Source: Alkalispirochaeta sp. (GTDB taxonomy: Bacteria > Spirochaetota > Spirochaetia > DSM-27196 > Alkalispirochaetaceae). Taken from it: a DNA stretch of 64,000 nt. The notes beneath the pieces were generated by a model. That model worked only from the letters and a program-made list of their open reading frames with translations. It did not search any database and was not told where the DNA came from. Made by a program: the position numbers and the translations under genes. This document shows positions 26,241 through 64,000 of this stretch, piece by piece; positions within the stretch are counted from its first letter, which is position 1; each line of letters opens with the position of its first letter. The DNA lies in assembly GCA_965601925.1 (NCBI GenBank), contig OZ271854.1, forward strand, positions 4,576,001 through 4,640,000, given 5' to 3'.

Positions 26241-26294
26241 GCAATCCCTCCTTCTTATAATGAGGTCTTTGGTGCGCCCCATCGCTCGTATCTC

Positions 26295-26361
26295 ATTATG
26301 AGGAGAGCTTTTTCGTTCTCGATACTTCAAAATTCGGTCACAACTCCACCGAGCGGATGCA
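26295..26361 (-). promoter_or_regulatory. Putative AraC-activated promoter of the family-5 SBP gene
   Basis: Second copy of the 42-bp motif, plus CATAAT at 26295-26300. Confidence 0.65.
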
Positions 26362-26384
26362 GTAATGAGCATTAGACTTGTCGA

Positions 26385-28712: not shown

Positions 28713-28835
28713 CGCGCGGCGCCGATTACCCTCGGATAGATCGATCCGCCGCGCGGAACGGCCCCCTTGTGCGGTACCTTTTGAGCTCATAATATCCCAT
28801 AGTACCATGAAAATACTGGGAGCAGACTCGCCGCC

Positions 28836-29576
28836 GTGCCGGTAGAGATCGACACGTTACTCTTCCTCGCCGCCGTAACGCTCGCGGCGACGGTCCACGC
28901 CGTAGCCGGATTCGGGTTCGGTCTGATTGCGGTCACCGCCGCGACCCAGCTCTTCGACATCCGCACCGCGGTGGCGACACTCTCGTTCGCAAGCCTCGCG
29001 GTGAGTCTAACCGTGCTCCTGCGCCTGCGCCGCCACCTCCGGTGGGAGGGGCTTGCTCCGCTGATCCTCGCATCCCTTGTCGGTGTCCCCATCGGCATCG
29101 CACTGCTTCGTCGCGCCGACCCTTCGATCCTCATGACCGCCCTCGGGGTGCTCTTGGTAGGGGCGGCGATACAGGGCCTCTTCTTCCGTCCCGGTCCGAG
29201 AGCGTGGCCCCCGGCGGCCGGCGTACTGTGCGGATTGCTCTCCGGCGCCCTCGCCGGCGCCTTCGGAACCGGGGGACCGCCGGCCACCGTTTACATTCTC
29301 AATCAGCACTTCGATCGCTTCCGTCACGTCGCATCCATACAGGCGATACTCCTCATCGGTAACGTAGTGCGCCTTCCGCTGTTGGTCGCCGGTGGCGAGA
29401 TCACATGGTCCGTCGCGGCGCCGGGGCTCGTCGGCGCGGCCATCGCCGCTCTCGGCTCCCTCGTGGGGTTGAAGGTCCTCGACGGAGTGCCGACACCGGC
29501 GGTGAAGCGTCTCGTCCTCCTCCTTTTGGCGGTCGTTGGTATCCGTTACGTCATAGTCTACTCGTTCCTACAGTGA
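28836..29576 (+). CDS. TauE/SafE-family (TSUP) permease
   Basis: AGFGFGLI and GALAGAFGTGGPP repeats; about 8 TM helices. Confidence 0.9.
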   Translation: MPVEIDTLLFLAAVTLAATVHAVAGFGFGLIAVTAATQLFDIRTAVATLSFASLAVSLTVLLRLRRHLRWEGLAPLILASLVGVPIGIALLRRADPSILMTALGVLLVGAAIQGLFFRPGPRAWPPAAGVLCGLLSGALAGAFGTGGPPATVYILNQHFDRFRHVASIQAILLIGNVVRLPLLVAGGEITWSVAAPGLVGAAIAALGSLVGLKVLDGVPTPAVKRLVLLLLAVVGIRYVIVYSFLQ

Positions 29577-29583
29577 GAAAGAC

Positions 29584-29635: not shown

Positions 29636-29663
29636 CCAGACATATCATTTTGAGGACTCGACG

Positions 29664-30731
29664 TTGAAAAATCACAGCATAGCGGTCATTCCCGGCGACG
29701 GCATCGGAGCGGAGGTCGTCGAGCAGGGGATAGCCGTTCTGGAGCGGGCCGGCTCGCTCTTCGATGTACGTTTCGAATGGACCGAGTTTCCGTGGGGGTG
29801 CGAGTACTACGCCCGGACGGGTCGCATGATGAGCGCCGACGGTATCGACCGTCTACGGCAATTCGACGCGATATATCTCGGCGCCGTCGGGTATCCCGGC
29901 GTCCCGGACCACATCTCCCTGTGGGGTCTGCTTATCCCGATACGCCGGGAGATGCACCAGTACGTCAATGTGCGCCCCGTACGACTGCTTCGCGGCCTCC
30001 GCTCTCCCCTCGCCGACAGACGGCCGGAGGAGATCGATTTCGTCGTCGTTCGAGAAAACAACGAGGGCGAGTACTCCGAAATCGGCGGACGCCTCTACGC
30101 GGGGAGCGAGGCGGAGATGGCGGTGCAGGAGAGCGTCTTTACCCGCTCAGGCGTCGACCGAGTACTTCGCCACGCCTTTGAGACGGCCTTGACGCGCCCC
30201 GCCCGGCACGTCACGTCGGCGACGAAGTCCAATGGGATCAAACACACCATGCCCTTCTGGGACGAACGGTTTCGGGCGATAGCGGCGGAGTACCCCGATG
30301 TCCGTACCGATCAGTACCACATCGATATCCTCGCCGCTCACTTCGTCGCACACCCCGACTGGTTCGACGTCGTGGTCGCCAGCAACCTCTTCGGCGATAT
30401 CCTTTCCGATCTCGGCCCCGCAGTCGCCGGGAGCATCGGGGTCGCCGCCTCCGCAAATCTGAATCCGGAACGGCAATACCCCTCGATGTTTGAGCCGGTT
30501 CACGGATCGGCGCCGGACATTGCGGGAAAGGGTATCGCCAACCCGGTGGGGCAGATCTGGTCCGGCGCGCTCATGCTCGAGCACCTCGGACACCCCGAGG
30601 CGGCCGGCGCCGTCGTTGCGGCGATCGAGCGCGTCGTCGCCGACGAGCAATTGAGGACCCCCGACGTGGGCGGGCGAGCCACATCCGCCGACGTCGGAGC
30701 GGCGATCGCGAGTGCATTGGAGGATCGGTAG
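29664..30731 (+). CDS. ttuC: Tartrate dehydrogenase/decarboxylase (D-malate dehydrogenase; YeaU/DmlA/TtuC family)
   Basis: IPGDGIG, VPDHISLWGLLIPIRRE, RENNEGEYS, SATKSNG, SNLFGDILSD, FEPVHGSAPDIAGKGIANP; TTG start. Confidence 0.92.
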   Translation: MKNHSIAVIPGDGIGAEVVEQGIAVLERAGSLFDVRFEWTEFPWGCEYYARTGRMMSADGIDRLRQFDAIYLGAVGYPGVPDHISLWGLLIPIRREMHQYVNVRPVRLLRGLRSPLADRRPEEIDFVVVRENNEGEYSEIGGRLYAGSEAEMAVQESVFTRSGVDRVLRHAFETALTRPARHVTSATKSNGIKHTMPFWDERFRAIAAEYPDVRTDQYHIDILAAHFVAHPDWFDVVVASNLFGDILSDLGPAVAGSIGVAASANLNPERQYPSMFEPVHGSAPDIAGKGIANPVGQIWSGALMLEHLGHPEAAGAVVAAIERVVADEQLRTPDVGGRATSADVGAAIASALEDR

Positions 30732-31816
30732 TGAAGATCACGGACATTGTCGTTGCGGTGGTACCGATGCCGAGCTTGGCGAAACCCTTTTGGAACTCGA
30801 TCATCCGCACCGAGCGCGTCGATCGCGCGCGGATCGAGATCAAAACGGACGAGGGCGTTGTCGGAACGGCCCCATGCCAGCCGGGGGTCAAACACTTTGT
30901 CGAGGGTACGATACGCGGCAAGCTCATCGGTCTGGACCCCCTTCGAACGGACCTCCTCTGGCAGACGATGTATATGGGAGGGACGCGCAAGCCGGTCTCC
31001 AAGGGCAGTTTTATCGTCGCCATGAGCGCCGTCGACAACGCATTGTGGGATCTCAAGGGGAAGGCGCTGGGTCAGCCGGTATGGCGCCTCGCCGGGGGTG
31101 CGTACGATACGGTGCGCGTCTACGCCGCCGGAGGGTACTACGAGGACGACAAAGGAGTTCCGGAACTCTGCGCCGAAATGGAGAGCTACGTCGCTGAGGG
31201 GTTTACGGCGGTGAAGATGAAGGTGGGCTGGCCGGGAGCCGGTCTCAAAGGTGACGCAGAGCGAGTGGCCGCAGTGCGTGGGGCGATCGGCGACGATATC
31301 GATCTCATGGTCGACGCCAACAACGCGTGGGACGCCCACACGGCGATCCGCTTCGGACGAATGATCGAGCGGTACGAGCCGTATTGGTTTGAGGAGCCGG
31401 TCCACGCCGACGACTACGACGGCGCGGCCAAAGTCGCCGCGGCGCTGGATATACCGATTGCAAGCGGGGAAAACGAGCATACGCGCTACGGCTTTCGCGA
31501 GCTGATAGAGCGCGGCGGGGCACAGATCATCCAAGCCGACCCCAATAACTGCGGCGGCATCAGTGAATGGCTGAGAATCGCCGCGATCGCCGGCGCTCAC
31601 CATCTCCCGATGTCGCCCCACGGCAACGCGGCGATCGGAGCGTGTTGCGTCGCCGCCGTCGGAAACGGCCTCATAACGGAGTACTACCCGACGGCGCACC
31701 ACAATCCCCTGTTGGGACGTCTCGACTTTCGCGACGGACACGTAATGTTGTCCGAGGAGCCGGGGCTCGGCATTCAATGGGACGAAGCGCTCATCTCCTC
31801 GATGGGGAAAGGATAG
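30731..31816 (+). CDS. Mandelate racemase-subgroup enolase-superfamily enzyme (D-tartrate dehydratase-like)
   Basis: [23 protein letters not shown] (KxK), metal ligands VDAN/FEEP/GENE, SPHG. Confidence 0.88.
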
Positions 31817-33675
31817 GGCATACGAAGTATCGAGCGGGTCTCCGTCTCAAATTCTTAGCGATATCGGTCACCGTCGCCGTGAGCCTCTTGACGGTCGGCG
31901 GTGCCGCGGCGATCGCGGCGCGGCGCGGTATCGAGCTGACGCGGGAGCAGAACGCCGTGCAAAACGCCCTCCTCGAGTGGAGCGGCCTCGTTAATCGGAC
32001 CCACGCCCTCCTCCTCGACGTCGAGGACTTCGGCACGATGGCGCGGCAGTGGACGGATTCATTCGACTCCTTTCGCGCCGCCCTGGCGCCGGTGATCGCC
32101 TCTCCGATGCTCCGAAGGACGAGCCCCGACCTCGCGCGGCAACTCGACGGGCTCGAGCGCCTATGGGAGCGCGTGGAGGGCCGAGCGGAAGCAACCGAGG
32201 CGGCACTCTCGGACGGGACGGCGCACGCCCGCTTGCGACTCGAGGAGGCGATGACGGACCAACACGTCGGGGGTCTCGTCCATACCCTCGGCGTCCACGC
32301 CGGGCGCGGTGATCCGGACTACCAGCTGGCGGAGCTCGAGGGCGCCGTCGCCGCATTACTCCTCGCCGACGACTCCTTTGCCGAGATTCTCAACGATACG
32401 TCGCTGATGGTGTTCGAGATCGTCGAAGAGGCGCGTATCGTTCAGCTGCGGGTAGCGGCGGCGGTTACGGTCGTCGTGACGATCATAACCCTCGCCGTCA
32501 GTCTCGTCTTTGCGCACCGCATATCGGGCAGAGTCCGCCGTATCTCCTCCGGCGTAGAGGCGGTCGCTCAAAAGGACTTTCGAGTGGAGCTGAGGCAGGC
32601 GGGGACGGACGAGATCGGGTCTCTTACGCGGGACATCAACACACTCATCGTGACGCTCCGCACCGTTCTCGGTGATGTTACCGCGTCGATCTCCGACGTC
32701 CTGGACCGCAGCACGCGCATATCCTCGTCTACCGTACAGTCGTCCCGCGACCTGAGCGATGTCGGCGAGACGATCGAGGCGTTGACGGTACAATTCACCA
32801 CCCTCGACGAGAGCATCCACCGCGTCGAGGAGGCGACCCGACGGATCGATGTTGAGGCGTCGGGCCTGATGCGACAGGTCGAGGAGCAGACCGGGGCCAT
32901 CACGGAGTCGACCGCAGCGATCGAGGAGATGACCTCGTCGATACGAAGCGTCGAACGCATTGCGTCGGAGAGCCACGACCGCGCCGGGCGCCTGGGTAGG
33001 GACATCCTGCGGAGCGGGCAACAGATAGAGACGACCAACGAGTCGATAAAAACCGTCGTCTCGGGCTTTGAGGGCGTGTTGGAAGTTACGCGAATCATCG
33101 ACGAGATATCGAGCAGGACCAACCTCCTCTCGATGAACGCGGCGATCGAAAGCGCGCGGGCCGGCGAAGCGGGACGCGGATTCGGCGTCGTCGCCCAGGA
33201 GATCCGAGAGCTGGCCGAGTCCACGGCGAAGAATGCGCACCTCATCAAAGAGACTCTCTCCACGATGCAGACCCAAACCGAGCAGGCGCGGAGCGACGGG
33301 GAGACGAGTCTGGAGGCGTTTTCGACGATTCACGCCGAGGTCGTCGCCTTCATGGAGTCGATGGAGACGATTCGGAGTGCGACATCGGAGCTCTCGAACG
33401 GGAGCACCGAGCTCCTTCGCGCCGCGGCGGATCTCTCGGGAGCGCGGAGCACGATCGACGGGTCGGCGCGATCGATCGCCGGCGGTCAGACGGACATCCG
33501 GCGGTCGATGACCGAAATATCGGCGATCTCGACGCAGCTGCGCGACGCCGTCTCACACATGGCCGACGCCGCGCGGGAGGTTATCGAGCGGATGCGGAGC
33601 CTGGCGTGTCTCGATCGCGAGAGCGCAGCGGCGATGAAGAGCCTCGCGAGCAAGGTGTCGGAGTTTCACATTTAG
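31777..33675 (+). CDS. Methyl-accepting chemotaxis protein
   Basis: Two TM helices, HAMP (DEIGSL), signalling hairpin [38 protein letters not shown]. Start uncertain; the ORF-track start at 31567 lies well inside the upstream gene. Confidence 0.93.
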
Positions 33676-33689
33676 TCAGGGTGTCAAAG

Positions 33690-34766
33690 GTGGGTAGAAG
33701 CGTGACGTTGACCATCGTCGGAGAGACCAACGTACAGGAGAGGGAGCGCCCGGAGGAGGCGTTTTCCCTCGTCGGCGATCTCTTGAGTACATCTGACGTC
33801 CTCTTCGGCCATTTGGAAGGACTCTTCCACCCGCCGTCGTCCGATCCGGAGCGCCCCGACATCCCCTACAAGAGCGCCTGGCGCCACGCCGACCCGTCCC
33901 AAGTCGTCGCCTACAACGCGGCGGGCTTCGACGCGATGTGTGCGGCGAGCAACGTCGCCTACGGAGAGGCGGCGATTCGGACCACCCTCGCCGTACTCTC
34001 CGAGGCCGGTATCCCGGTGTGCGGCATCGGCCTCGACCGCGACGCGGCGCGGCGCGGCGTCGTCGTTGAGAAGGGCGGTATCCGGTTCGGCTATCTGAGC
34101 TACACGTCGGTCTTCTGGCCGTCGGATCACGCGGCGCGGGAGGGTGTGCCGGGAGTGGCGACGATCAAGGCGCACACCGCCTACCAACCGGGTCGTCGCG
34201 CCTTGGAGATGCCCGGCGCGCCGCCGGAGGTCGTGACCTTTCCCGATCGGGACGAGCTTGCGGAGATGGGCAGGGACGTCGAGACCCTTCGGAGTGCCGT
34301 GGACGTCCTGGTCGTCTCGTGCCACTGGGGAGTATCGAGCAGTCCCGTCGTCGTTTCGTACCAACAAGCGATCGGCCGCGCGGCGATCGACGCCGGTGCC
34401 GATATCGTCTTCGGCCACCACCCTCACGTTATCCAGCCGATCGAAGTGTGGAAGGGGCGCCCCATACTCTACAGCATGGGCAACTTCGCCTTTGACTGGC
34501 GGAAGATGCGCGGTCGCAACCTATTCGGCCTCGCCGCGCACATTCGCATCGTAGAGGGACGGGTCGAGGCGGTCTCGCTGACCGTGGCGCGGCGCAACGG
34601 AGACAATATGATCGAACCGATCGCGGCGACCGACACGGACGCGAGACCGGTACTGGAGCCTGTTATAGAGGAGGCGCGTACGCGCTTCGACACTGCGATA
34701 GAGGTAGCCGGCGACGGACTCGTCGTCGATCTTTCCACGAGTCGTCGGATCGACAAGGAGGTGTAA
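33690..34766 (+). CDS. CapA/PGA_cap-family metallophosphoesterase-fold hydrolase, cytoplasmic
   Basis: SCHWG, AIDAGADIVFGHHPHVIQPIE, YSMGNF; no signal peptide; GTG start at 33690 or 33702. Confidence 0.87.
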   Translation: MGRSVTLTIVGETNVQERERPEEAFSLVGDLLSTSDVLFGHLEGLFHPPSSDPERPDIPYKSAWRHADPSQVVAYNAAGFDAMCAASNVAYGEAAIRTTLAVLSEAGIPVCGIGLDRDAARRGVVVEKGGIRFGYLSYTSVFWPSDHAAREGVPGVATIKAHTAYQPGRRALEMPGAPPEVVTFPDRDELAEMGRDVETLRSAVDVLVVSCHWGVSSSPVVVSYQQAIGRAAIDAGADIVFGHHPHVIQPIEVWKGRPILYSMGNFAFDWRKMRGRNLFGLAAHIRIVEGRVEAVSLTVARRNGDNMIEPIAATDTDARPVLEPVIEEARTRFDTAIEVAGDGLVVDLSTSRRIDKEV

Positions 34767-35920
34767 TGTCCGATCTATTGACCCACTGGGCCGTTATGGA
34801 CGACGCGCGTCGGTTGATGACCTACGTCACCGGCGTGGACGCCGCCTTTGCGCGCACATTGAACACCCACCATCGCGTCGCGCGCCTGGGAGCAATCGCC
34901 CGCACCGAGGGGCACTGGGTCCCACGGGCGCTCAAGTGGGTACGAGCGCACTGGGGAACCGGTCCGTCGGAAATGACGGAGCGAAAGTTGGCGTGCTGCG
35001 TCGCCGCCTTGACCCACACGGCGTGCGACGCTCTGATGAAGGAGCTGCGCTTTCAGACGGTGACCGCCGAGGAGGGACGGGAGCATTCCGACGAGGACGT
35101 CGCGCGGCAGGTGTACGCTTATCATGACGCCCACGTCTTTCGGGAGGTGTACCGCGGCGGAAAAGAGGAGCCGTTTAGCCCCTTTATGTTCGCCGACAAC
35201 GATACGGCGTCGGGCCGCCGTTTGGAGAAGCTCGCAAAGGTACTGTTTCAGGCGGCGATCCTCGGGACTCGCACCTTCGACATCGCCTCTGAGTCACTCG
35301 ACCGCCCCTTCTTAGAACAGTTCATCGGCCGCACCATCGTCAAGGTACGTCGCACGCCCGATGCCGTACGCCGCGTCGTCGGCTCTCACGGCCTCTGTCG
35401 ACGCGAGTTGTACGATTGGTTGCGCAGCCTCCGTAGCGAGCGCGACGATGCCGATCCGAAGACGTGGGAGGAGATCGCCCCGCGCCTCGTCGTCGATCTC
35501 ACCGACCCGCAGAGCCGTCTGGAGAACATCCTCATCAACGAGTTGCCCCTCTATGTCGATCACCGGCGCCTGGTGGAGGCGTACAACCGGCCCGATCCCG
35601 ATCGCGTGCGCCGCTACCGCATCGAGCCCGACTTTTACGACCCCGCCGATCCGGCGATCGCCGCCGCGCGGCGGATACAGGCGGGTGAGGAGGTCCGCGG
35701 CGCCGACGTCGACGCGGCGACCTCACGCGGCGCCAACCGGAGCTTCTACGGTCGAGCGTTGGAGCTGGCCATGGAGTACGAGCGGCGCGGCTCCGCCTTT
35801 TGGCGGGGCGAGACGGAGACCTTGGAGACTCCCAACTGGTCGTCCGACTCGGACAAGGCGCTGAACTTTCGACTTCGTCACGCATCGGAGGCGGAGTTGG
35901 CCGCCAATCGCACATTTTGA
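34766..35920 (+). CDS. Hypothetical protein, possible Zn-dependent phospholipase C/P1 nuclease-like fold
   Basis: AAGGAGG RBS and TAATG coupling to the upstream gene. N-terminal SDLLTH, LGAIA, THTACD (HxxxD), YHDAH. Confidence 0.7.
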   Translation: MSDLLTHWAVMDDARRLMTYVTGVDAAFARTLNTHHRVARLGAIARTEGHWVPRALKWVRAHWGTGPSEMTERKLACCVAALTHTACDALMKELRFQTVTAEEGREHSDEDVARQVYAYHDAHVFREVYRGGKEEPFSPFMFADNDTASGRRLEKLAKVLFQAAILGTRTFDIASESLDRPFLEQFIGRTIVKVRRTPDAVRRVVGSHGLCRRELYDWLRSLRSERDDADPKTWEEIAPRLVVDLTDPQSRLENILINELPLYVDHRRLVEAYNRPDPDRVRRYRIEPDFYDPADPAIAAARRIQAGEEVRGADVDAATSRGANRSFYGRALELAMEYERRGSAFWRGETETLETPNWSSDSDKALNFRLRHASEAELAANRTF

Positions 35921-35930
35921 ACGGAGAGCA

Positions 35931-36788
35931 GTGGTGAAACCATTCGTAACACTCATGACCGTCGCCGAGCACGCAAGCCTTCTTTCCCGCGCCGCGGGGT
36001 GTCTTCCACCGGATCTCGACGCTGCGTTATCGGAGCACGAGTTGCCCTATCTCCTCGGCGCCGTCGCGGCCGTCGACGCCGATATGGTGAAGTCGGGTCT
36101 CACGGACCTCAAAGAACACTGGAACAGCGACGGCGTCTATCCGCCCCGCCACCGTCAACATCCCGGTATTCTGGAGCGTGATCGGCGCCTCGCTTTCTGC
36201 GCCGGAGGGGTCGTGCAACTCAACGCGATGCGGCTCTTCCCCGATGTGAGCGACCGAGAGCGGCGTGACGTGGAGGCGCGAGTGTTGGACCGACTCGTCA
36301 TCGGAGCGGACCGATCGGCCTTGGAGGATTATCTCAGCCGGACCGGGGGGACCGACGCCCCGATAGTCGATGTAGCGTCGGATTACTTCTCGGCGCTCTT
36401 CATGCGCTCCCTTGCCGAGTCGCACACGATGATCCCCGATATGGTGGCGATCCAACCGTGGTTGGAAAAGACCGTCGCCGGCCCGGCGCTCTTGGAGCGT
36501 GAGATCAACGAGACGACGAGGCGGCTCTTCGGCTCCTCCGCCGACGCCGTCGCTTCGTCGCCGGCGGCCGACTTCGTCGCCCCGTCGGAGCCCGCGGTGC
36601 GTGTTGCCCTCGAGCTCCAGGACGGTCGCCGAGTCGACGCTGCGACGATCGAAGAGACACTCAAGACGACGGAGGCGGCCGATCTCTACGGACGCGCCCT
36701 CATCCGGTGCGCGCGGGCGTTGGACAAGATCGGCCGGTGGTGGACGGCACCGGACGAGCGCACAATCGAGATAGTGGAGGAGGATTAG
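35931..36788 (+). CDS. Hypothetical protein, degenerate paralogue of the preceding gene
   Basis: GGAGAG RBS; shares LGA(V/I)A, R(R/K)LA.C and C-terminal DF..P..PA...A..(L/I)Q.G..V...YGRAL...W blocks with 34766-35920. Confidence 0.7.
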   Translation: MVKPFVTLMTVAEHASLLSRAAGCLPPDLDAALSEHELPYLLGAVAAVDADMVKSGLTDLKEHWNSDGVYPPRHRQHPGILERDRRLAFCAGGVVQLNAMRLFPDVSDRERRDVEARVLDRLVIGADRSALEDYLSRTGGTDAPIVDVASDYFSALFMRSLAESHTMIPDMVAIQPWLEKTVAGPALLEREINETTRRLFGSSADAVASSPAADFVAPSEPAVRVALELQDGRRVDAATIEETLKTTEAADLYGRALIRCARALDKIGRWWTAPDERTIEIVEED

Positions 36789-36791
36789 ACG

Positions 36792-38231
36792 ATGCAAACC
36801 GTGCACTTCGAGTATGGTCAAGGAGTTATGCCCGCCGAGCTTCCCGACGACGCCCGGATCTTCGTTCCCGGCGAGACGGTACCCGACCCGCCCCCTCTCG
36901 CCGACCCGATTGCCGCGACGAAGGCGGCGATCCGCCGTCCGATCGGCATGCCGCCGATCTCCGAGCTCGTAAAGCGCGGCTCGACGGTGACGATCGCCTT
37001 TCCCGACCGGGTTAAGGGGGGCTTTCACGAGACGGCGCACCGCAAGGTCGCCATCCCGATCCTCATCGAGGAGTGCCTCCGGGCGGGGGTGCGCAAAGAC
37101 GACATCCGTCTCATCTGTGCGACGGGCCTCCACCGTAAGAACACCAAAGAGGAGTTGCGATCCCTCGTCGGCGACGCGGTGTTTGCCGAGTTTTGGCCGA
37201 CGAATCAGATTCTCAACCAAGACTCCGAGGACGCCGACGATCTCGTCGATCTGGGATACGACTCCGACGGCGATCGGGTCATTCTCAATAAGACGCTCTT
37301 CGAGTCGGACCTCCCGATTCTCCTCGGCCACGTCATGGGCAATCCCTACGGAGGCTACAGCGGGGGCTACAAGATGGCGTGCACCGGCATGGCCAACTGG
37401 CGCCTCATCCGCGACGTTCACAAGGCCGACGTGGTGCTCCACCACGACTTCGTACCGGTATCTGGACACAGTACCCAGCGGAAGAAGTTCAATACCGTGG
37501 GACACTTCATGGAAGAGAAAATGGGGAAACGGTTCTTCATGGTCGACGCGGTGCTGGATACCAAAAACCGTCAGATCGCCGTCTACGCCGGCTACGGTGA
37601 GGAGATGCAGCCCACATCGTGGGTCGAGGCGGACAAGCGGACCTACGTCCCGTGGGCACAGGAGAAGTTCGACATCGTGATGTTCGGCATGCCGCAGAAC
37701 TTTCACTACGGAAACGGCCACGGCACAAATCCGGTGCTCATGATCCAGGCGATCGGCGCCAACATCGTCCGTCACAAGCGCGTACTCAAGGACAACTGCG
37801 TCGTGATCTGCTCATCGATCTGCAACGGATACTTTCACGACGAGGAGTTTCCCTCGTTTCGCGAGGTCTACGATCTGCTGCAGCGCGACTACAACTATAC
37901 GATTCCCGACATCGATCGCTACGGAGAGTACATCGCGACGCGCCGCGAGTACGTCGACCGGTATCGCTTCAAGTACGCGTACCATCCGTACCACGCCTTC
38001 GTAAATCTGAACATGGGACACATCGCCCACGTGCATACGGCGGCGACCTACATCGTCGGTGCGTACGAGCCGGGATACGTGCGGGGTATCGGGATGAAGC
38101 CGGTGGCGACCTTTGCCGATGCGCTGCGCGATGCGGAGCGCTACACCGGTCCACGTCCGCGCATACTGGCGCTCCCACGCGCCTTCAAGGTGCCGTCGGT
38201 GCACCTCATGATGGCCGACGAGACGCCGTAG
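36792..38231 (+). CDS. LarA-superfamily (lactate racemase domain, DUF2088) hydroxy-acid racemase/epimerase
   Basis: AIRRPIGMPPISELV, IAFPDR, ATGLHRK, GGYSGGYK (pincer-Lys motif), VILNK; GGAGGAGG RBS. Confidence 0.87.
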   Translation: MQTVHFEYGQGVMPAELPDDARIFVPGETVPDPPPLADPIAATKAAIRRPIGMPPISELVKRGSTVTIAFPDRVKGGFHETAHRKVAIPILIEECLRAGVRKDDIRLICATGLHRKNTKEELRSLVGDAVFAEFWPTNQILNQDSEDADDLVDLGYDSDGDRVILNKTLFESDLPILLGHVMGNPYGGYSGGYKMACTGMANWRLIRDVHKADVVLHHDFVPVSGHSTQRKKFNTVGHFMEEKMGKRFFMVDAVLDTKNRQIAVYAGYGEEMQPTSWVEADKRTYVPWAQEKFDIVMFGMPQNFHYGNGHGTNPVLMIQAIGANIVRHKRVLKDNCVVICSSICNGYFHDEEFPSFREVYDLLQRDYNYTIPDIDRYGEYIATRREYVDRYRFKYAYHPYHAFVNLNMGHIAHVHTAATYIVGAYEPGYVRGIGMKPVATFADALRDAERYTGPRPRILALPRAFKVPSVHLMMADETP

Positions 38232-38361
38232 GGTCGCCCACCGCCGAATCGTCGCCCGCCGCCCGGCTCGGCGGATAGCTCACCGCAGGACGAGGAGTCG
38301 CGACGCGACGTACCGTAAGATGTTGAAGAGGAGTGTTCCGAGTTGGTAGAGGAGGAGACCA

Positions 38362-39627
38362 ATGCACGCGGTACAAAAAATACTGGCCCGAGGCGCCGGA
38401 GTATCGACGGTTCACGAAGGAGACATCGTAAACTGTGAGGTCGACTTTCTCGAGCTGAACGATCTCTACCTCCAAGTGGTGCGCTCCTTTCACGAGATGG
38501 GCGGCCGGTCGGTGTGGGACCCACGTAAAGTCTCGTTCGTCTTCGACCATTACTCGCCGGCGCCGACGGTCAGGGCGGCGCAAATTCACCACGAGATGCG
38601 CCGGTTCGCCGAGGAGCACGGTTTCGTGCACCACTTCGACATTCAATGCGGTGTTTGTCATCAGGTGATGCCCGAAGCGGGAATCGTGCGGCCAGGAATG
38701 ATACTCGTTGCAACCGACTCCCATACGACGACGCACGGGGCGTTCGGCGCCTTTGGAACCGGTATCGGAGCCACCGACGCGGCGACGGTGCTCATCTCAG
38801 GCGAGCTGTGGCTGCGCGTCCCCGAGGTGATCAAGATCGAACTCAGAGGCAGACCGCCCGCGGGCGTCTTTGCGAAAGACGTCATCCTACACGTGATCGG
38901 CGACCTCAAGGCGGACGCGGCGGTCTATCAGGCGATCGAGTTTGCCGGTGACTACGTCGACCGACTCGACGTCTCGGACCGGATGACGATCTGCAACATG
39001 GCGGTTGAAATGGGAGCGCAGACGTCGTACATGAGGCCGAACGAGGCGGTGCTCGAATACTTGGAAGAGCGTACCGGCGAGACGTTTACCCTCGACGAGA
39101 CCGACGACGACTTCGTCTACGCCGCGCAGCACATCTACGACGTGTCGCGACTCTCTCCCCAGCTCGCCTGTCCACATAACGTCGACAACGTGATGGAGGT
39201 AGAGCGTGTGGCGGACGTATCGGTTCAACAAGCCTTTATCGGGTCGTGTACCGGGGGACGCCTGGACGATATCGCGGAGGCGGCACATATCATGAACGGC
39301 GCGTCGGTGGCGCCGGGGACGCGCCTCGTCGTCGTTCCGGCGTCGCGGGAGGTTTACACGCGGGCGATCGAGGCGGGCTACGTTCAGACGCTCATGACCG
39401 CCGGTGCGACATTCAACGCTCCGGGGTGCGGCCCGTGCTTGGGGACGCATGCGGGCCTTCTCGCGTCGGGTGAGGTCTGCGTATCGTCGACCAATCGCAA
39501 CTTCCCCGGACGCATGGGGGCGAACGATGCGTCGATCTATTTGGCTTCACCGGCCCTCGTCGCCGCCTCGGCGGTACACGGTCGTCTTACGGACCCCCGC
39601 TCGTATTACGGAGGTAGCGAGCAATGA
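38362..39627 (+). CDS. leuC: Aconitase-family hydratase large subunit (LeuC/HacA/DmdA type); substrate uncertain
   Basis: FDH, GVCHQV, DSHTTTHGA, NMAVEMGA, IGSCTGG and GCGPCLG (three [4Fe-4S] Cys), NRNFPGRMG. Confidence 0.9.
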   Translation: MHAVQKILARGAGVSTVHEGDIVNCEVDFLELNDLYLQVVRSFHEMGGRSVWDPRKVSFVFDHYSPAPTVRAAQIHHEMRRFAEEHGFVHHFDIQCGVCHQVMPEAGIVRPGMILVATDSHTTTHGAFGAFGTGIGATDAATVLISGELWLRVPEVIKIELRGRPPAGVFAKDVILHVIGDLKADAAVYQAIEFAGDYVDRLDVSDRMTICNMAVEMGAQTSYMRPNEAVLEYLEERTGETFTLDETDDDFVYAAQHIYDVSRLSPQLACPHNVDNVMEVERVADVSVQQAFIGSCTGGRLDDIAEAAHIMNGASVAPGTRLVVVPASREVYTRAIEAGYVQTLMTAGATFNAPGCGPCLGTHAGLLASGEVCVSSTNRNFPGRMGANDASIYLASPALVAASAVHGRLTDPRSYYGGSEQ

Positions 39628-40133
39628 ATCGCACCATTACGGGAAAAGCGCACCTATTCGGGAAAAATATCAGCACAGACCAGATTTATCCCGGGCAGTA
39701 CCTCGATCTGGTTGAGCCCTGCGAGATCGCCGAGCATTGCATGGAAGGCGCCGATCCGGCGTTCGTAAAAAACGTCGACGCCGGAGACATCGTAGTGGCA
39801 GGTACTAACTTCGGCTGCGGGTCGAGCCGGGAGCACGCCGCTATCGCCTTAGTTGAGGCGGGCGTGGCGTGCGTCGTCGCCGAGTCCTTTGCACGCATCT
39901 TCTACCGCAACGCGATCAACTTGGCGCTTCCGGTGATCGTCTGCAAAGAGATCGGTGCCTTTGCCGCCGCAGGAGATATCCTTTCGGTCGACCCGTCGAC
40001 CGGTGCGATAGAGAACATAACCGCCGGTACCTCGACCCGAGGAGAACGTATCTCCGGCTACGCGTTAGAAATCATCCGCAAGGGCGGCATCAAGGCGATC
40101 TTCCGTGAGAAGACGCGCGCGATGTACGGGTAA
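39624..40133 (+). CDS. leuD: Aconitase-family hydratase small subunit (LeuD/HacB type)
   Basis: NISTDQIYPGQYL, NFGCGSSREHA, SFARIFYRNAINLALP; ATGA overlap with the large subunit. Confidence 0.9.
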   Translation: MNRTITGKAHLFGKNISTDQIYPGQYLDLVEPCEIAEHCMEGADPAFVKNVDAGDIVVAGTNFGCGSSREHAAIALVEAGVACVVAESFARIFYRNAINLALPVIVCKEIGAFAAAGDILSVDPSTGAIENITAGTSTRGERISGYALEIIRKGGIKAIFREKTRAMYG

Positions 40134-40200
40134 CACGTATCGAAGTAGGGCGCGCAGATGCACGCCGTCTACGATGAACGGACGGCCCCCAAAGCGAACC

Positions 40201-41283
40201 CTAAAACGTTCTACCCTCCTCGGCGAGAAGCTTCTCGTTCCACTCCATACCGAGCCCCGGCCGATCGCTCATCATCACGTATCCGTCCTTGAACTCCGGC
40301 GGCTCAACCAGCTCGGTACGAAAGTTTCTGAGGTAGTTCTCGACGACCAGTCCGTGCTCTACCGCGGCGACGACGACGCACCCGAGAGAGCCCTGGCCGT
40401 GAGGCGCCATCTTGAGGTGGTGGGCGCCGGCGATCGCGGCGATACGCATCCACTCGCTGATGCCGCCGCAATTGTTGGGATCCGCCTGCACGACGGCGAC
40501 GCCGCCTCGGGCGATCAGATCGCGAAAGCCCCACCGCGTGTGTTCGTTCTCGCCGCTCGCGACCGGCATCGCCAGCGCGTCGGCGACCCTTGCCGACCCC
40601 TCGTAGTCGTCGGCGCGCACCGGCTCCTCAAACCAATACGGATCATACGCCTCGATCAGTCTCCCGAAGCGGATCGCCGTGGTCGCGTCCCACGCGTTGT
40701 TGGCGTCGACCATGAGCGCAATGTCGTCGCCGACGGCGCCTCTGACCGCCTTGACGCGCTCGGCATCCTCTTTGAGTGAAATGCCGGGCCAACCGACCTT
40801 CATCTTCACGGCGCGAAAGCCCTGGGAGACGTAGGTCGTCATCTCGTCACAGAGTTCGCGTATACCCTTGCCCTCCTCGTAGTAACCCCCGGCGGCGTAC
40901 GCCCACAAGCGCTCCTGCGCACCCCCGAGGAGTTTCCACGTCGGCTGGTTGCACACTTTGCCCTGGAGGTCCCACAGGGCGTTGTCGGCGGCGCTGATCG
41001 TCCCGATGAACTCACCTTTGGCGACCGGTTTGCGCGTGCCGCCCATGTAGAGCTTGTCCCACAGGTAGCTAATGCGGAGCGGATCCTCGCCGATTAGCTT
41101 CTTTCGGAGCGTCTCCAAATTGGTCTTGACCGAGGCGGCGCAGAGGGTCATTCCGGTGATACCCTCGTCGGTATGGATCTCAAGGCGGGCACGCTTCTTC
41201 TTCCTGGTCGTCTTGATCGCGTTCCAGAAGGGTTTTCTCAGCTCCATCTCAACGATGGTGAGTTTAACGGCGGTAATTTTCAC
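40201..41283 (-). CDS. Mandelate racemase-subgroup enzyme, close paralogue of 30731-31816
   Basis: [67 protein letters not shown] at 41283 after AGGAG. Confidence 0.9.
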   Translation of the reverse strand: MKITAVKLTIVEMELRKPFWNAIKTTRKKKRARLEIHTDEGITGMTLCAASVKTNLETLRKKLIGEDPLRISYLWDKLYMGGTRKPVAKGEFIGTISAADNALWDLQGKVCNQPTWKLLGGAQERLWAYAAGGYYEEGKGIRELCDEMTTYVSQGFRAVKMKVGWPGISLKEDAERVKAVRGAVGDDIALMVDANNAWDATTAIRFGRLIEAYDPYWFEEPVRADDYEGSARVADALAMPVASGENEHTRWGFRDLIARGGVAVVQADPNNCGGISEWMRIAAIAGAHHLKMAPHGQGSLGCVVVAAVEHGLVVENYLRNFRTELVEPPEFKDGYVMMSDRPGLGMEWNEKLLAEEGRTF

Positions 41284-41321
41284 GTAGGTACTCCTTCTCG
41301 TAGTAGTCGATTCGTCGGTCG

Positions 41322-42767
41322 CTATCGGTGCGGAAAGACCATGAGCGAGGCGAGCTCGGTGACGTCGGCGACATCCTCCAACGTCCAGACGCACTCGATG
41401 ATCCGATCGATCCGCGCGGTATCCATATATTCCTCGGCCATCGTACGAAACTTTTCCTCGAGCTCTCCGTCGGTGACCGGGTCGTCACCGATACCGTGGG
41501 GAACTTCGATCCGTTTGACCAAGCGGCGACCGTCGCGCGTCAGAATTACCGAGACTGCGGCGCGGCCGAGGGGCCCGGCGTCATCGATGATTTTGAGGTG
41601 AACCCTGCCGGCGAGGTCGATGATAACGGGATCGTCGAAGTGTTCCTCGCGATACGCCTCGGCACCGAGGGTGCGCCTGGCGATGATCGACGCCGTCGTG
41701 AAATAGGCGCTGTGGTCCGCCGTCTCGCCGTTGCGTGGGTAGCGCCATGAGCCGAGATAGCTGTTGTTGCGCCAGAGCCCTACCGGCACGTGGAGGGTAA
41801 CCGACTCGATGTCCGCTGGGCCGAGGTCGTGCTCGACGACCAAGGCGTGCGTCGCCGCGAGGTGCGTCCGATTTCCCCCCGAGGCGGCAAAGGTCTTGTA
41901 CTTCGTATCCAAAATGCGCCATACGTTAAAGTTGAGAAGCGCTTCGAGATCCATCTCATCGTCCAAAAGCCCCTGTTTGACGCCGCCGTGTCCCTCCACC
42001 ACGCGGATCGGCCCGGTAAAGCCCTCCTTCGCCAAAAGGCACGAGAGGATTGCGTGGTAGGAGCCGAACCCGAAGCGCAGGTTCTTGGCCATCGTCAGCT
42101 CCTCCTGGCAGGAGTCGAGAATGTAAAGTGGGAAACTGTGGCTCGCCGAAATCCCCACGGCGTTGGCGATCTCTTCTTCCGAGAGTCCTAACAGTCGCCC
42201 CAGGACCGGCGGCATGCTCAGTGCCGCTCGAGCGTCGAAATTGAGTCCCTTCTTTTTCCACGCCGTTCCCGATCCGCCGCCGGCGGTCAGCGCAGGGCCG
42301 GTAAGAGAGTCGGTGATGCGGGCGCCCAACTCGTAGGAGGCGACGACGGCGGTCAAAAAGCTCCGCCCGCCGGCGTGTTGGCGCTCGGCGACGGCGAGAA
42401 TCGCCGGAATGGCGTCGCTGTTGTGCCCCCCTCCCCCACCGTCGTTGAAGTCGAGATAGCGCGTCAAAAAGGAGTTGACGACGGTCGCGTTGAGCGCGCT
42501 GGTCCGAATACCGGTCCCGAAGGTGGTCGCCTCCTCGACACCGCCGACGGCGCGAATCGCCCGCTCGCACGCCGCGCGTCCCGGCGCGTAGTAGGCGCCG
42601 ATCGCACACCCCAGGGCGTCCAGAACGGACCGTTTTGCCTGCCCGACGACCGCCGGGGGCAGCTCGTCGTAGTCGAGTCGGAGGGCGTACCGCGCGAGTT
42701 GCCAGGCGACGCTCGAGCGATATTGAAGGTCCCTCCGTTCCCAGTACAAATCTTTCAGTCGATGCAC
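41322..42767 (-). CDS. MmgE/PrpD-family protein
   Basis: DALGCAIGA, RYLDFND...GHNSD, GFTGP..VVEG..G, ETADHS, LEEKF. GTG at 42767 after AAAGGAG (ATG at 42794 is an alternative). Confidence 0.92.
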   Translation of the reverse strand: MHRLKDLYWERRDLQYRSSVAWQLARYALRLDYDELPPAVVGQAKRSVLDALGCAIGAYYAPGRAACERAIRAVGGVEEATTFGTGIRTSALNATVVNSFLTRYLDFNDGGGGGHNSDAIPAILAVAERQHAGGRSFLTAVVASYELGARITDSLTGPALTAGGGSGTAWKKKGLNFDARAALSMPPVLGRLLGLSEEEIANAVGISASHSFPLYILDSCQEELTMAKNLRFGFGSYHAILSCLLAKEGFTGPIRVVEGHGGVKQGLLDDEMDLEALLNFNVWRILDTKYKTFAASGGNRTHLAATHALVVEHDLGPADIESVTLHVPVGLWRNNSYLGSWRYPRNGETADHSAYFTTASIIARRTLGAEAYREEHFDDPVIIDLAGRVHLKIIDDAGPLGRAAVSVILTRDGRRLVKRIEVPHGIGDDPVTDGELEEKFRTMAEEYMDTARIDRIIECVWTLEDVADVTELASLMVFPHR

Positions 42768-42812
42768 GCACTCTCCTTTGTCAGTTTCATACACTCTGCC
42801 CCAGGGAGCGGA

Positions 42813-42880
42813 ATTCTACCACTGCGAGTTTCGGCCCTTGCCGTCGACGACGCTTCAAAAAATCGACAACTCTTCACTAT
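42813..42880 (-). promoter_or_regulatory. Putative promoter of the prpD-like operon, sharing a motif with the oad promoter
   Basis: Minus strand reads ATAGTGAAG-N10-TTTTT-GAAG-N34-TAGAAT, with an extended -10 TG. Confidence 0.45.
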
Positions 42881-42932
42881 TCGGCGGACCGCATTGACGC
42901 CCTACCGGAGCCGTGCCACGATTTTCGAGCAT

Positions 42933-44030
42933 ATGAACATAACCGGATTGACGAGTTACTATACCCGCGGCGCTTACTACGTCGCCGTAGATACCGCGGA
43001 GGGGGTACGGGGAGTCGGCGAGTGCAGCCGCATGCACAACGACGCAGTCGCCCAAATTATGGACAAGACGATCGCGCCGGCGGTGATCGGCACGTCGATC
43101 TTCGATACCGAGCTTCTCGAAGAGCGGGTGATGACACGCCACTACAAGATCTCAGGCCAGCTCTTGGCCATGGCGTTCAGCGGTGTGGAGATCGCCGTCC
43201 AGGACGCCCGCGCCCGGGCGGTCGGGCAACCGCTGTACAACCTCATCGGCGGCCGATATCGATCCTCGATTCCCCTGTACGCCTCCTTGACCCTCCGCAA
43301 CATGAGCCTGGAAGAGGAGTGCGCCTTTATCGCCCAACGGGTGGCCGAGGGCGGATTTGAGGGCGTCAAGATCAAGATCGGTCCCCGTATGGGCCGCTCA
43401 CGAGAGATCGTAGATATCGAGGAGGACGTGAAGAAGGTTCGCGCCGTACGCGCCGCTCTCGGTCCCGGTCCCAAGCTCATGATCGACGCCAACAGCTCCT
43501 ACAACTACATCCAAGCGGTGCGCCTCTGGGAGCGCGTCAAAGAGTACGATATCTACCACTTCGAGGAGCCGTGCCCCTACTGGGACGTCGAGACGTACGT
43601 CAAACTCGCCTCGACGTTGCCCGTTGCGATCCATGTAGGAGAGCAGGATTGGAACTTGTACACCTTTCGCGACTTTGTCGCTCGCGGGGCGTGCCACCTC
43701 TACGCCGTAGACCCCGTCAAGTGCGGCGGCATTTCCAACGCAAAACGCGCCGCAACGCTCTGCCGCGCCCACGGCGTCACCTATGTGCCGCACAACACGT
43801 CCCGCGGCGTCGGTTTGGCGTCGATGCTCCACATTGCCGCATCCACGCCAGAGTTCAACTATTACGGTGAATACAAGATCAATCCCTTTGAAAAGGCCGA
43901 GGAGTATCTCGTCGAACGCCTTCCCATCGCCGACGGGCGCATCGCGGTGCCCGAGGGGCCTGGACTCGGCATCGAGATCGATTGGGACGAGCTCACCAAG
44001 ACGACGACGGTCGTTAAGCACGCGCGTTAG
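42933..44030 (+). CDS. Mandelate racemase/muconate lactonizing enzyme family protein
   Basis: GVGE, SGVEIAVQD, KIKIG, IDAN, FEEP, VGEQ, KCGG, VPHN. ATG at 42933 (ORF-track 42375 is an over-extension), preceded by TTGACG-N17-CACGAT. Confidence 0.9.
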   Translation: MNITGLTSYYTRGAYYVAVDTAEGVRGVGECSRMHNDAVAQIMDKTIAPAVIGTSIFDTELLEERVMTRHYKISGQLLAMAFSGVEIAVQDARARAVGQPLYNLIGGRYRSSIPLYASLTLRNMSLEEECAFIAQRVAEGGFEGVKIKIGPRMGRSREIVDIEEDVKKVRAVRAALGPGPKLMIDANSSYNYIQAVRLWERVKEYDIYHFEEPCPYWDVETYVKLASTLPVAIHVGEQDWNLYTFRDFVARGACHLYAVDPVKCGGISNAKRAATLCRAHGVTYVPHNTSRGVGLASMLHIAASTPEFNYYGEYKINPFEKAEEYLVERLPIADGRIAVPEGPGLGIEIDWDELTKTTTVVKHAR

Positions 44031-45603: not shown

Positions 45604-45605
45604 CG

Positions 45606-48155: not shown

Positions 48156-49142
48156 ATGCTTACCTATATCCTGCGACGGCTGCTCTACATGATACCGACA
48201 CTCTTCGCCGTCTCGTTGGTAGCGTTCATTATCATTCAACTTCCCCCGGGGGATTATCTGACGACCTACATGGCGGAGCTCGAGTCCGAGGGCGGTGTGA
48301 TGGATCAGCAGGAGCTCGAGTATCTCAGAGAGCGCTACGGCTTGGACCAGCCGATTCATGTCCAGTATTTCAAGTGGATCTCGGGGATTCTCCTTCGCGG
48401 CGACTTCGGATACTCCTTTGAATGGGAACGCCCCGTCCGCCTGATGATCTGGACCCGCGTCGGCCTCACCTTTGTGGTAACCCTGACGACGCTCCTCTTC
48501 GTGTGGGCCGTTGCATTTCCCATCGGTTTCTACTCAGCGGTGCGGCAGTACTCGGTCGGCGACTATATCGCGACCTTTTTCGGATTCATCGGCCTTGCAA
48601 CGCCCAACTTCCTGCTCGCCCTTATCCTGATGTATGTCGGGTTTCGATACTTCGGTCAGAGCGTGGGCGGGCTCTTCTCTCCGGAGTACATGGACGCCCC
48701 GTGGAGTGTTGCGCGCTTTCTCAACCTCCTTTCGCACCTCTGGATACCGGTGGTCGTCCTCGGCACGGCCGGAACGGCCTCTCTCATCCGCGTCATGCGC
48801 GCCAACTTGCTGGACGAGTTGCGCAAGCCCTACGTCGTGACGGCGCGCGCCAAGGGGCTGAGCGAGGCGCGCCTGTTGGTGAAGTACCCCGTACGGGTCG
48901 CTCTCAACCCCTTTGTCAGCACCCTCGGATGGGTGCTGCCGCGTCTGGTATCGGGATCGGTCGTAACCGCCGTCGTTCTCAACCTTCCCACGACGGGGCC
49001 GATCATGCTCAGGGCCCTCCGATCACAAGACATGTATCTGGCGGGCAGCTTCGTGCTGCTACTCAGCACGCTGACCGTCATCGGGACGCTCGTCTCGGAC
49101 ATACTGCTCGCCTGGCTCGACCCGCGCATCCGTTACCACTGA
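48156..49142 (+). CDS. ABC transporter permease (DppB/OppB type)
   Basis: YILRRLL, LPPGD, YGLDQP, GDFGYSF, YVVTARAKGL, LDPRIR. Confidence 0.95.
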   Translation: MLTYILRRLLYMIPTLFAVSLVAFIIIQLPPGDYLTTYMAELESEGGVMDQQELEYLRERYGLDQPIHVQYFKWISGILLRGDFGYSFEWERPVRLMIWTRVGLTFVVTLTTLLFVWAVAFPIGFYSAVRQYSVGDYIATFFGFIGLATPNFLLALILMYVGFRYFGQSVGGLFSPEYMDAPWSVARFLNLLSHLWIPVVVLGTAGTASLIRVMRANLLDELRKPYVVTARAKGLSEARLLVKYPVRVALNPFVSTLGWVLPRLVSGSVVTAVVLNLPTTGPIMLRALRSQDMYLAGSFVLLLSTLTVIGTLVSDILLAWLDPRIRYH

Positions 49143-49167
49143 TCCGTAGTTACGAGGAGAACAGACT

Positions 49168-50379: not shown

Positions 50380-50388
50380 GAGGAGACC

Positions 50389-54685: not shown

Positions 54686-54687
54686 GG

Positions 54688-63833: not shown

Positions 63834-64000
63834 CGGCGTACGAAGTGAACCTCTTTAGCGACGGAGCGCCTTACGGACCGCCGGGCGGAGGCCCGTACCC
63901 CCCGGGGGCGATGTCGATACGGGCGAGACGTCGTTGCGTTTCCTCGTACACGTCCGGAGGTAGCGGCCCTCTCCGAGTCGCCCGGAGGTTGCTGAGAAGG

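Follow-up and report, generated by a model that had tools for sequence, protein, structure and literature searches.

A mosaic catabolic gene island of Alkalispirochaeta sp. with a predicted pair of complementary half-enzymes

Which compound is taken up and degraded by the products of a catabolic gene cluster in the spirochaete Alkalispirochaeta sp., and do these products form a single pathway? The cluster lies on contig OZ271854.1 of assembly GCA_965601925.1, between positions 4,576,001 and 4,640,000; this whole stretch of 64,000 nt is called the window, and coordinates refer to it unless stated otherwise. An earlier note, drawn up from the letters alone, had described segment 29664-44030 as one uncharacterised hydroxy-acid pathway, in which hydrolases free a substituted tartrate, a malate or a branched acid from an imported conjugate, enolases, a LarA-like epimerase, a PrpD-like protein and LeuCD set its stereochemistry right, and the dehydrogenase TtuC and the Na+-pumping Oad complete the degradation. 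Compared with other genomes, the gene set is a lineage-specific mosaic of separately conserved modules and not one conserved pathway. Its most unusual part is two genes, hyp1 and hyp2, which have lost complementary sets of residues.

Gene content and separately conserved modules

A family-profile search of the open reading frames (ORFs) of the window found the named genes present and intact between 29664 and 44030. They lie where the note had placed them, with starts that are probably shifted in four cases, to about 31777 for the gene of the methyl-accepting chemotaxis protein (MCP), 33681-33690 for capA, 42767 for prpD and 41283 for eno2. The run 29664-40133 is indeed co-directional and tight: ttuC/eno1, capA/hyp1 and leuC/leuD overlap, and the gaps are 10 nt between hyp1 and hyp2, 3 nt between hyp2 and larA, and 130 nt between larA and leuC. 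The functional unit reaches well past this segment. It spans 24294-64797, i.e. 40.5 kb or 0.8% of a genome assembled as a single contig of 5.05 Mb (96.7% complete).

The extent of the unit is given by a ten-gene set, module A, which recurs as an operon in another phylum. A metagenome scan with the hyp1 alignment yielded 29 loci, many of them on short contigs. Six of the loci (L104-L109) are near-identical and were therefore counted as one case; their protein clusters include entries named Anaerolineae bacterium CG2_30_64_16. Read from two overlapping contigs (L106 and L104), this operon has the order family-5 binding protein, oppB, C, D, F, hyp1, hyp2, capA, aldo-keto reductase (AKR), eno1. 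All ten genes have their best match in the Alkalispirochaeta genome inside 24294-64797, with identities of 56, 76, 75, 70, 71, 54, 37, 52, 66 and 72% in operon order. The counterparts in the window are a family-5 (cluster C) solute-binding lipoprotein (24294..26372, minus strand; PF00496), the permeases and ATPases of an oppBCDF-type ATP-binding cassette (ABC) transporter (48156..52517, plus strand; recognized by Pfam, 70-76% identical to the L106 genes), hyp1 (34766..35920, plus), hyp2 (35931..36788, plus), capA (33681..34766, plus; PF09587), the AKR gene, whose 3' end occupies 63875..64000 on the minus strand and which runs on to about 64800, past the window, and eno1 (30731..31816, plus), an enolase of the mandelate racemase subgroup. 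Six module A families (binding protein, opp genes, AKR, enolase, CapA) have paralogues elsewhere in the genome; the AKR is the best of nine genome matches.

Two smaller sets were found in spirochaetes of the same order. Module B, present in genome G865, comprises leuC (74% identity), leuD (65%) and homologues of eno4 (57%) and of a major facilitator superfamily (MFS) transporter (36%), and shares its locus with an Opp system and with a true orthologue of D-tartrate dehydratase (TarD; E 4e-183 to 2DW7). In the window these genes are leuC (38362..39627, plus), leuD (39624..40133, plus) and the pair formed by the DgoD-like enolase gene eno4 and the MFS gene (53495..55947, plus). Module C, in genome G031, consists of ttuC (29664..30731, plus, in the window; 70% identity) located directly before a TarD-like enolase. 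It is accompanied there by an Opp system, a glycoside hydrolase family 106 (GH106) gene and, adjoining ttuC, a GH29 gene that is 39% identical to the alpha-L-fucosidase-like GH29 gene of the window (56493..57809, minus).

Thus sub-sets of the genes do co-occur elsewhere, as the note had asked to be checked, but the whole set was seen in no other genome or locus searched. A DNA search with 28.8-44.1 kb among 99 genomes of the order returned single genes or leuCD only. Close homologues of larA, eno1, capA, prpD and leuC were not found in 16 congeners, and in plasmids hyp1, capA and leuC had no match above the thresholds applied, eno1 and prpD only distant ones. The hyp1 profile detected one of 401 Spirochaetota genomes, the host itself, one of 401 genomes in the class of genome G460 (a distant form), and none of five LarA-carrying genomes; a second set of 201 genomes of G460's class gave the same match and is not independent. 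In that class eno1 was found in 2 of 301 genomes, with 44-46% identity and in unrelated contexts.

Such a distribution could also arise at an accretion hot-spot where unrelated, partly decaying catabolic cassettes have come to lie side by side, with no common substrate even in 29.6-40.1 kb. The genes of module A are spread across 40 kb with other genes between them, close homologues of the five genes named above are missing from the congeners, a regulator gene at 61381-63833 is read in two frames, and LarA deviates from its subfamily and has lost its usual partner (see below). Against this, the ORFs of 29.6-44.0 kb are intact, their catalytic residues are kept, the GC content at third codon positions is host-like (0.72-0.82 across the island genes), and genes of modules A and C stand in one tight run (ttuC-eno1, capA-hyp1-hyp2-larA). 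We consider mere juxtaposition unlikely.

The hyp1/hyp2 pair

Neither hyp1 nor hyp2 has a Pfam match. When the predicted model of hyp1 (pLDDT 88) was compared with 48,161 chains by VIA-align, the six best matches were all phospholipase C or S1/P1 nucleases; the best one had a Z of 8.4 and an rmsd of 3.7 A over 154 residues, with residue 2 placed on residue 1. The atlas clusters returned for hyp1 carry PF00882 in 13-56% of their members. The note had taken the two proteins for paralogues. This is borne out by the family profile and by a natural fusion (P0005) of a hyp2-type domain to a hyp1 homologue, the direct BLAST match being weak. In another case (P0007/P0162) homologues of hyp1 and hyp2 are probably together on one 375-kb contig.

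The hyp1 family has 472 representatives at E <= 0.001 and numbers at least 472 clusters at 50% identity. Its conserved residues are S2, D/E3, H7, D13, R46, H84, D88, K92, Y119 and D121; across 126 sequences the conservation of H7, H84, D88, D121, R46 and K92 is 72-92%, as expected of a catalytic site. The N-terminus, H7, H84 and D88 are presumably metal-binding, by analogy with P1 nuclease. hyp1 keeps the putative metal ligands S2, H7, H84 and D88 as well as D3, R46, K92 and D121; it has lost the histidine of the family's 'SHT' motif and contains an insertion of about 75 aa. In hyp2 H7, H84 and D88 are missing and the 'SHT' histidine, His165, is kept. A check of hyp1 for the tri-zinc ligands found the N-terminus, H7, H84 and D88, and the remaining ligands were unmatched by sequence.

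Losses of this kind recur in the family. Among 180 aligned hyp1-family domains both metal ligands and the histidine are kept in 101; the histidine position is occupied by Gln in 18 and by another residue in 27; 12 domains have two ligands, and 22 have one at most, 20 of the latter keeping the histidine. Long hyp1 forms lack the histidine in 12 of 13 cases. Seven fusions have two domains: in all of them the histidine is kept in the C-terminal half, which has lost ligands (in two cases by truncation), and in three the N-terminal half is without the histidine. The complementary losses in hyp1 and hyp2 suggest one composite active site. Complex prediction for hyp1 and hyp2 gave a score of 0.90, the best control scoring 0.00; the mark applied was reached by 116 of 157 solved pairs and by 2 of 215 mismatched pairs. 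Contacts agreed to at least 86%, and the partner pLDDT was 83 or higher. The predicted interface is pseudo-symmetric and includes residues 3-5 and 44-47 of hyp1 and 151-186 of hyp2. On the strength of this model, hyp1 and hyp2 likely build one active site from two half-enzymes, and we infer that the ancestor was a homodimer whose site was completed in trans and whose two roles have here passed to separate proteins. The bond that the pair cleaves is probably a phosphoester or a similar ester.

Several hyp1-family proteins show further arrangements. In P0323 the domain is fused to a PhoD phosphatase, and in P0203, P0210, P0219, P0221, P0226 and P0315 it is tandem-duplicated (several of these being 560-600 aa long), the second half having lost metal ligands. 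Some of the 23 hyp1-family loci other than the Anaerolineae case adjoin a GlcNAc-2-epimerase-family gene, GH130 or rhaM. At L128:1604-5653 a hyp1-family gene separates the binding-protein gene of a tripartite tricarboxylate transporter from its permease genes, and at L124:8026-11972 one does so in an Opp-type ABC transporter. At L141 (G513:C172) a distant hyp1-family gene is clustered with two enolase genes, one of them 66% identical to eno4, and with creatininase-like, Ldh_2, URO-D-like, AKR and GH2 genes.

The other enzymes and the surrounding genes

The capA product, which had been called a CapA-family hydrolase, belongs to the CapA/PGA_cap family with its metallophosphoesterase-type fold and has the motifs GETN, GHLE, ASNV, SCHW and GHHPH; its activity as a hydrolase is uncertain. 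The histidine of the NNH motif is missing, ASNV being found in all three aligned CapA-like homologues. We take this histidine to be the general acid of calcineurin-like phosphoesterases. The sole solved relative in the PDB is MslH, an epimerase of the metallo-dependent phosphatase family (PMC8179263). Moreover, the CapA-like protein keeps a histidine that is Asn in the MslH entry 8ITH. With the NH-motif histidine lost and the 8ITH-altered histidine kept, the sequence makes an epimerase about as likely as a hydrolase. A second CapA-like gene of the host genome (L019:8033-10213, at about 84-86 kb) has the same ASNV and is located directly after a DgoD-like enolase gene in a family-1 ABC operon.

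These features bear on another reading, in which no conjugate is involved. The dimer of hyp1 and hyp2 would then have no hydrolase activity and would bind a ligand or assist a transporter, and the CapA-like protein would feed the enolase as an acid-sugar 2-epimerase of the MslH kind. The place of the hyp1-family genes inside the transporter gene sets of L124 and L128 is in its favour, as are the two histidine positions of the CapA-like protein, the activity of MslH and the CapA paralogue behind an enolase in L019. The conservation of H7, H84, D88, D121, R46 and K92 and the fusion to PhoD speak against a non-catalytic dimer, and we regard this reading as very improbable.

The enolases had been linked to D-tartrate dehydratase, an identity that did not hold. 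eno1 and eno2 (40201..41283, minus) are paralogues with 63% identity, are 30-34% identical to the TarD orthologue of G865, and lack the NSNGR loop. TarD is not among the 19 PDB matches at E <= 1e-40 and ranks 8-10 for the YAAGGYY segment. Aligned to TarD via the G865 orthologue, both proteins keep the 20s-loop Asn, the KP lysine, AGGYY, KxK, the three acidic ligands and the Asp-His pair. The residue set of the mandelate racemase subgroup (KxK, three acidic Mg ligands, His-Asp dyad) is complete in eno1 and eno2. The YAAGGYY enolases are best placed as a sister group of D-tartrate dehydratase, not as orthologues. In genome G897 an eno1 orthologue (70%) faces a gene for D-mannonate oxidoreductase (NF006132 327 > 281); a second protein nearby, without a family match, we take to be uronate-isomerase-like. 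Taken together, the sequences point to dehydration of a 2,3-dihydroxy acid, either an aldonate or a dicarboxylate. A further enolase, eno3 (42933..44030, plus), is related to the uncharacterised structural-genomics targets 3U4F and 3N4E.

TtuC scored above the cut-offs for tartrate/D-malate dehydrogenase (decarboxylating) (TIGR02089 550 > 470; PRK08194 521 > 501); the host genome has three other genes of the isocitrate/isopropylmalate dehydrogenase family. LeuC belongs to the HacA/DmdA-type subfamily of [4Fe-4S] hydro-lyases and has its cysteines C296, C356 and C359 intact. LeuD, of the LeuD/DmdB type (TIGR02087 187 > 109), shares with its G865 counterpart a YLDL loop that matches no equivalog cut-off. 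A role of this LeuCD in leucine biosynthesis was rejected: LeuC is below the cut-offs for the leucine enzyme (TIGR02083 436 < 611; TIGR00170 238 < 560), and the canonical leuCD lies elsewhere, in an ilv-leu operon (TIGR00170 617 > 560). The cluster is therefore catabolic and not biosynthetic, as the note had supposed. The position of ttuC beside a TarD-like enolase gene, and that of leuCD in the locus of a TarD orthologue, favour a chemistry of C4 hydroxy-dicarboxylates.

The LarA homologue (36792..38231, plus; LarA N-domain) had been regarded as an epimerase. It belongs to the single-histidine subfamily (E ~1e-182 to 9Q3J/9Q2U), in which the second catalytic histidine, here Asn184, is Asn in all 120 aligned sequences; D72, K75, H114, K194, H210, H305 and Y306, the active-site set of LarA_Sp, are kept. 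For this subfamily PMC12611868 reports the change of the second histidine to Asn, no lactate racemase activity, a reaction that is not known and glycolysis-like neighbours, and hydride transfer is suggested as a possible reaction in PMC13524815. The cofactor genes larB, larC and larE were not found in the genome (LarC none with TIGR00299 and PF01969, LarE 29 vs 150 bits, LarB 48 vs 175), controls being detected. LarC was absent from all five larA carriers of the same order and from all 17 genus genomes (drafts, 78-98%), and was present in 4/5 and 3/5 of other larA carriers; genes of nickel-pincer biosynthesis were found in 0/6 carriers of the order vs 7/10 elsewhere. None of 87 LarA loci (flanks up to 10 kb, many shorter) has ttuC, an enolase gene, capA, hyp1/2, leuCD, prpD or oad. 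The usual TIM-like partner, seen in 67 of these loci, is missing from the host genome. Among 256 conserved columns of the subfamily, LarA differs from the consensus in 31 (median 6; second highest of 120), and the active-site-adjacent segments 207-221 and 404-408 diverge; a new substrate or relaxed selection could each account for this. The protein is likely a passenger or a recruit, with its own nickel cofactor not made here. Two more larA-family genes of the host genome (L020:8877-10151 and L021:7773-9062) carry both catalytic histidine motifs and adjoin genes for FAD-oxidases or Fe-ADH.

The note had drawn an analogy to PrpD and the methylcitrate cycle, and a link to Oad. The MmgE/PrpD-superfamily protein (41322..42767, minus; PF03972/PF19305) scored far below the cut-off for 2-methylcitrate dehydratase (NF042438 46 vs 950), which makes the analogy weak, and it matches E. 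coli PrpD structures at E 4e-4 only. Its best PDB match, a distant one (E 2e-20), is iminodisuccinate (IDS) epimerase, and by sequence it falls on an unassigned MmgE/PrpD branch. The oadAB genes lie at 17260-20231, 9.4 kb upstream of the cluster, behind GH42 and the gene of an energy-coupling factor (ECF) S-component. They exist in three copies at ~85-89% identity (the others at host C1 899127 and 4962317), each in a different catabolic context, and oad was absent from all 87 LarA and 29 hyp1 loci, so that a specific link between Oad and the cluster is unsupported. A fourth oadB (59%) is present in the host genome. The ECF S-component gene and a DUF1893 gene upstream of oadAB (20705-21733) may serve vitamin uptake for a biotin enzyme.

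These results also bear on the single integrated pathway described in the introduction. It is supported by the co-directional ttuC-to-leuD run with its overlapping or tight junctions, by the TtuC and LeuCD homologues that accompany true TarD-type enolases in G031 and G865, and by TarD's KP lysine and GGYY tyrosine, which eno1 and eno2 keep. Its difficulties are that the full set was found nowhere else, that LarA lacks one catalytic histidine, the cofactor genes and such neighbours, that the PrpD-like gene was found in 1 of 99 genomes of the order and Oad is triplicated and unlinked, and that ttuC, larA and leuCD are missing from the recovered part of the Anaerolineae operon (the contig ends inside the enolase gene). 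We hold a pathway of this kind to be improbable.

The remaining genes of the island fit regulation, sensing and transport. A membrane-anchored AraC-type sensor regulator (26385..28808, minus; HTH_18), which is divergent from tauE-ttuC, is 34% identical to a second regulator at 45606. The tauE gene (28836..29576, plus; PF01925) encodes a TauE/SafE anion exporter. The MCP gene (31777..33675, plus; PF00015, PF00672; start inferred) stands between eno1 and capA. The gene of the sensor-AraC regulator at 61381-63833 changes frame near 63.3 kb, through a frameshift or an assembly error, and its HTH falls in an ORF of its own. Scans for promoters and terminators were at chance level (2 vs 4.0 expected; 14 vs 11.5). 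Outside the island, 10657-13479 encodes a cysteate synthase (TIGR03844 467 > 325) followed by a BioF/serine-palmitoyltransferase-like enzyme, likely a capnine/sulfonolipid pair; such pairs are associated with Bacteroidota rather than with spirochaetes.

In each of two public runs, 28000-46000 is covered by three Logan contigs without differing letters, all four runs coming from one sample that is possibly the assembly's own source. The contigs break only at a 32-nt stretch common to eno1 and eno2. These inverted paralogues flank segment 31306-40714 (9.4 kb), and an inversion between them would leave the operon in either orientation; there was no sign of one. A chimeric or inverted assembly via eno1 and eno2 was rejected: only 32 nt are identical, and each half of eno1 is nearer than that of eno2 to the G897 enzyme (72/67% vs 63/63%), hence no sign of a swap.

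A proposed route and its relation to known systems

The reading that we prefer, and to which we give an even chance, is that of a lineage-specific patchwork of modules which imports and degrades an anionic sugar-acid conjugate, with cleavage by a hyp1/hyp2 heterodimer and with accessory modules accreted. Gene content, tight coupling, the conservation of module A across phyla and the complementary residue losses of hyp1 and hyp2 are observed; each of the reactions is an inference. The conjugate would be imported by the family-5 binding protein and the Opp-type ABC transporter, under control of the AraC sensor and with sensing by the MCP. The predicted heterodimer, combining the metal ligands of hyp1 with the histidine of hyp2 in trans, would cleave a phosphoester or similar ester. 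The CapA-like enzyme might then remove a further group or epimerise the carbon beside the carboxylate, and the AKR might interconvert aldose/uronate and acid. eno1 and eno2 would turn a 2,3-dihydroxy acid into a 2-oxo acid by dehydration. The added modules would broaden the range: the accessory C4/branched-acid modules (TtuC, LeuCD, eno4) were presumably gained by accretion, and TtuC and the LeuCD-type hydratase would act on C4 or branched dicarboxylates, converting maleate or citraconate to D-malate-type acids and these to pyruvate, with tartrate as a further substrate.

Several observations weigh against this proposal. Module A is based on one fully read independent case, and for modules B and C there is a single genome apiece. 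Elsewhere in the order, three CapA-like homologues lie among housekeeping genes, without enolases, and in the other 23 hyp1-family loci transporter genes adjoin 7, an enolase gene is near 1 and capA near none. The Z of 8.4 is modest for an all-helical protein, Foldseek returned no match for the hyp1 model, and PF00882 did not match hyp1 or the 10 scanned family members. Phosphoesterase chemistry of hyp1 is not assured, because several phospholipase C metal ligands are missing. Since hyp1 and hyp2 are paralogues, the pass of their complex may only reflect a homodimer surface of the family, and the reach of His165 into the hyp1 site is deduced from predicted interface lists.

A more far-reaching version is doubtful, though somewhat less so than the alternatives weighed above. 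According to it, hyp1 and hyp2 would represent a transporter-associated, hitherto undescribed branch of the phospholipase C/P1 fold that acts as a dimer with a cross-subunit site, repeatedly split into metal and histidine halves, which opens a sugar-acid-conjugate route finished by TarD-like enolases, LeuCD, TtuC and a re-purposed LarA. The conjugate might be a phosphodiester or a branched pectin-derived acid, e.g. a 3-substituted tartrate, and LarA would obtain its cofactor by a route other than LarBCE.

In open-access text the gene set was not found to match a described pathway, as the note had suspected. Nor was any description of the ten-gene module or of the complementary half-enzymes found there, the enzyme families themselves being known. 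No paper brought together four of the five subjects zinc-dependent phospholipase C, mandelate racemase, ABC transporter, lactate racemase and CapA, and the literature on TarD, maleate hydratase and PF00882 yielded nothing on the gene set. A ten-gene module common to a spirochaete and Chloroflexota gives a testable map, with a binding protein that can be screened for its ligand. With the hyp1 family the phospholipase C fold gains a sizeable branch that has yet to be studied; its active site is probably composite, which two point mutants could test. The single-histidine LarA is an orphan in a new context, in genomes without detected nickel-pincer biosynthesis genes, and bears on the question of LarA function.

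Each component can be compared with a characterized system. With LarA_Sp and LarA_Bw (PDB 9Q2U, 9Q3K, 9Q3J; PMC12611868) the window LarA shares the Asn in place of the second histidine and the cofactor-attachment Lys and His, but the TIM-like/PFK/aldolase neighbours usual there are missing, as are larB/C/E from the genome. To TarD (Bll6730; PDB 2DW6/2DW7) eno1 and eno2 are related by the residues listed above, with D/E/E as the acidic ligands, and they differ in overall identity and in the NSNGR loop. TtuC is above the TtuC/DmlA equivalog cut-off, and LeuCD is in the HacA/DmdA subfamily of the LeuCD-type maleate, citraconate and dimethylmaleate hydratases, differing in the YLDL loop. Maleate, D-malate and pyruvate are known to be coupled in this order. 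The CapA-like protein has the PGA_cap fold and the GHxPH histidine in common with the MslH/CapA family (PDB 8GQ9), but scores only ~77 bits against a cut-off of 700, has ASNV for ANNH and GET for GD, and has no lasso or PGA genes near it. The zinc phospholipases C and S1-P1 nucleases (PDB 1AH7, 1OLP, 8CQM, 5FB9; PF00882) resemble hyp1 in the predicted all-helical fold, in the register of the N-terminal residue and His7, and in the HxxxD motif; hyp1 differs by an identity of only ~10% and by having no evident signal peptide. It is set further apart by the predicted dimer with complementary half-sites. The enzymes of these families are known as monomers.

For transport, the structure nearest to the binding protein is SPH1118 (PDB 7VER; E 2e-103), which according to PMC9314435 and PMC7055323 is a pectin-binding protein of chemotaxis and uptake; the two proteins belong to the same cluster-C family-5 branch and share the use of an Opp-type ABC transporter and of chemotaxis. 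The uronate-contacting residues of SPH1118 are not conserved, N53, R57, R496 and W594 being replaced by F, I, Q and S. A galacturonide as ligand was rejected on this ground: the ligand is probably not a galacturonide bound in the way of SPH1118, and only its 'carbohydrate-type' nature may be deduced. The agrocinopine acc operon, too, combines a family-5 binding protein, an Opp ABC transporter and a phosphodiesterase for a sugar phosphodiester. The fold of its hydrolase differs, and its likeness to the island is one of logic only.

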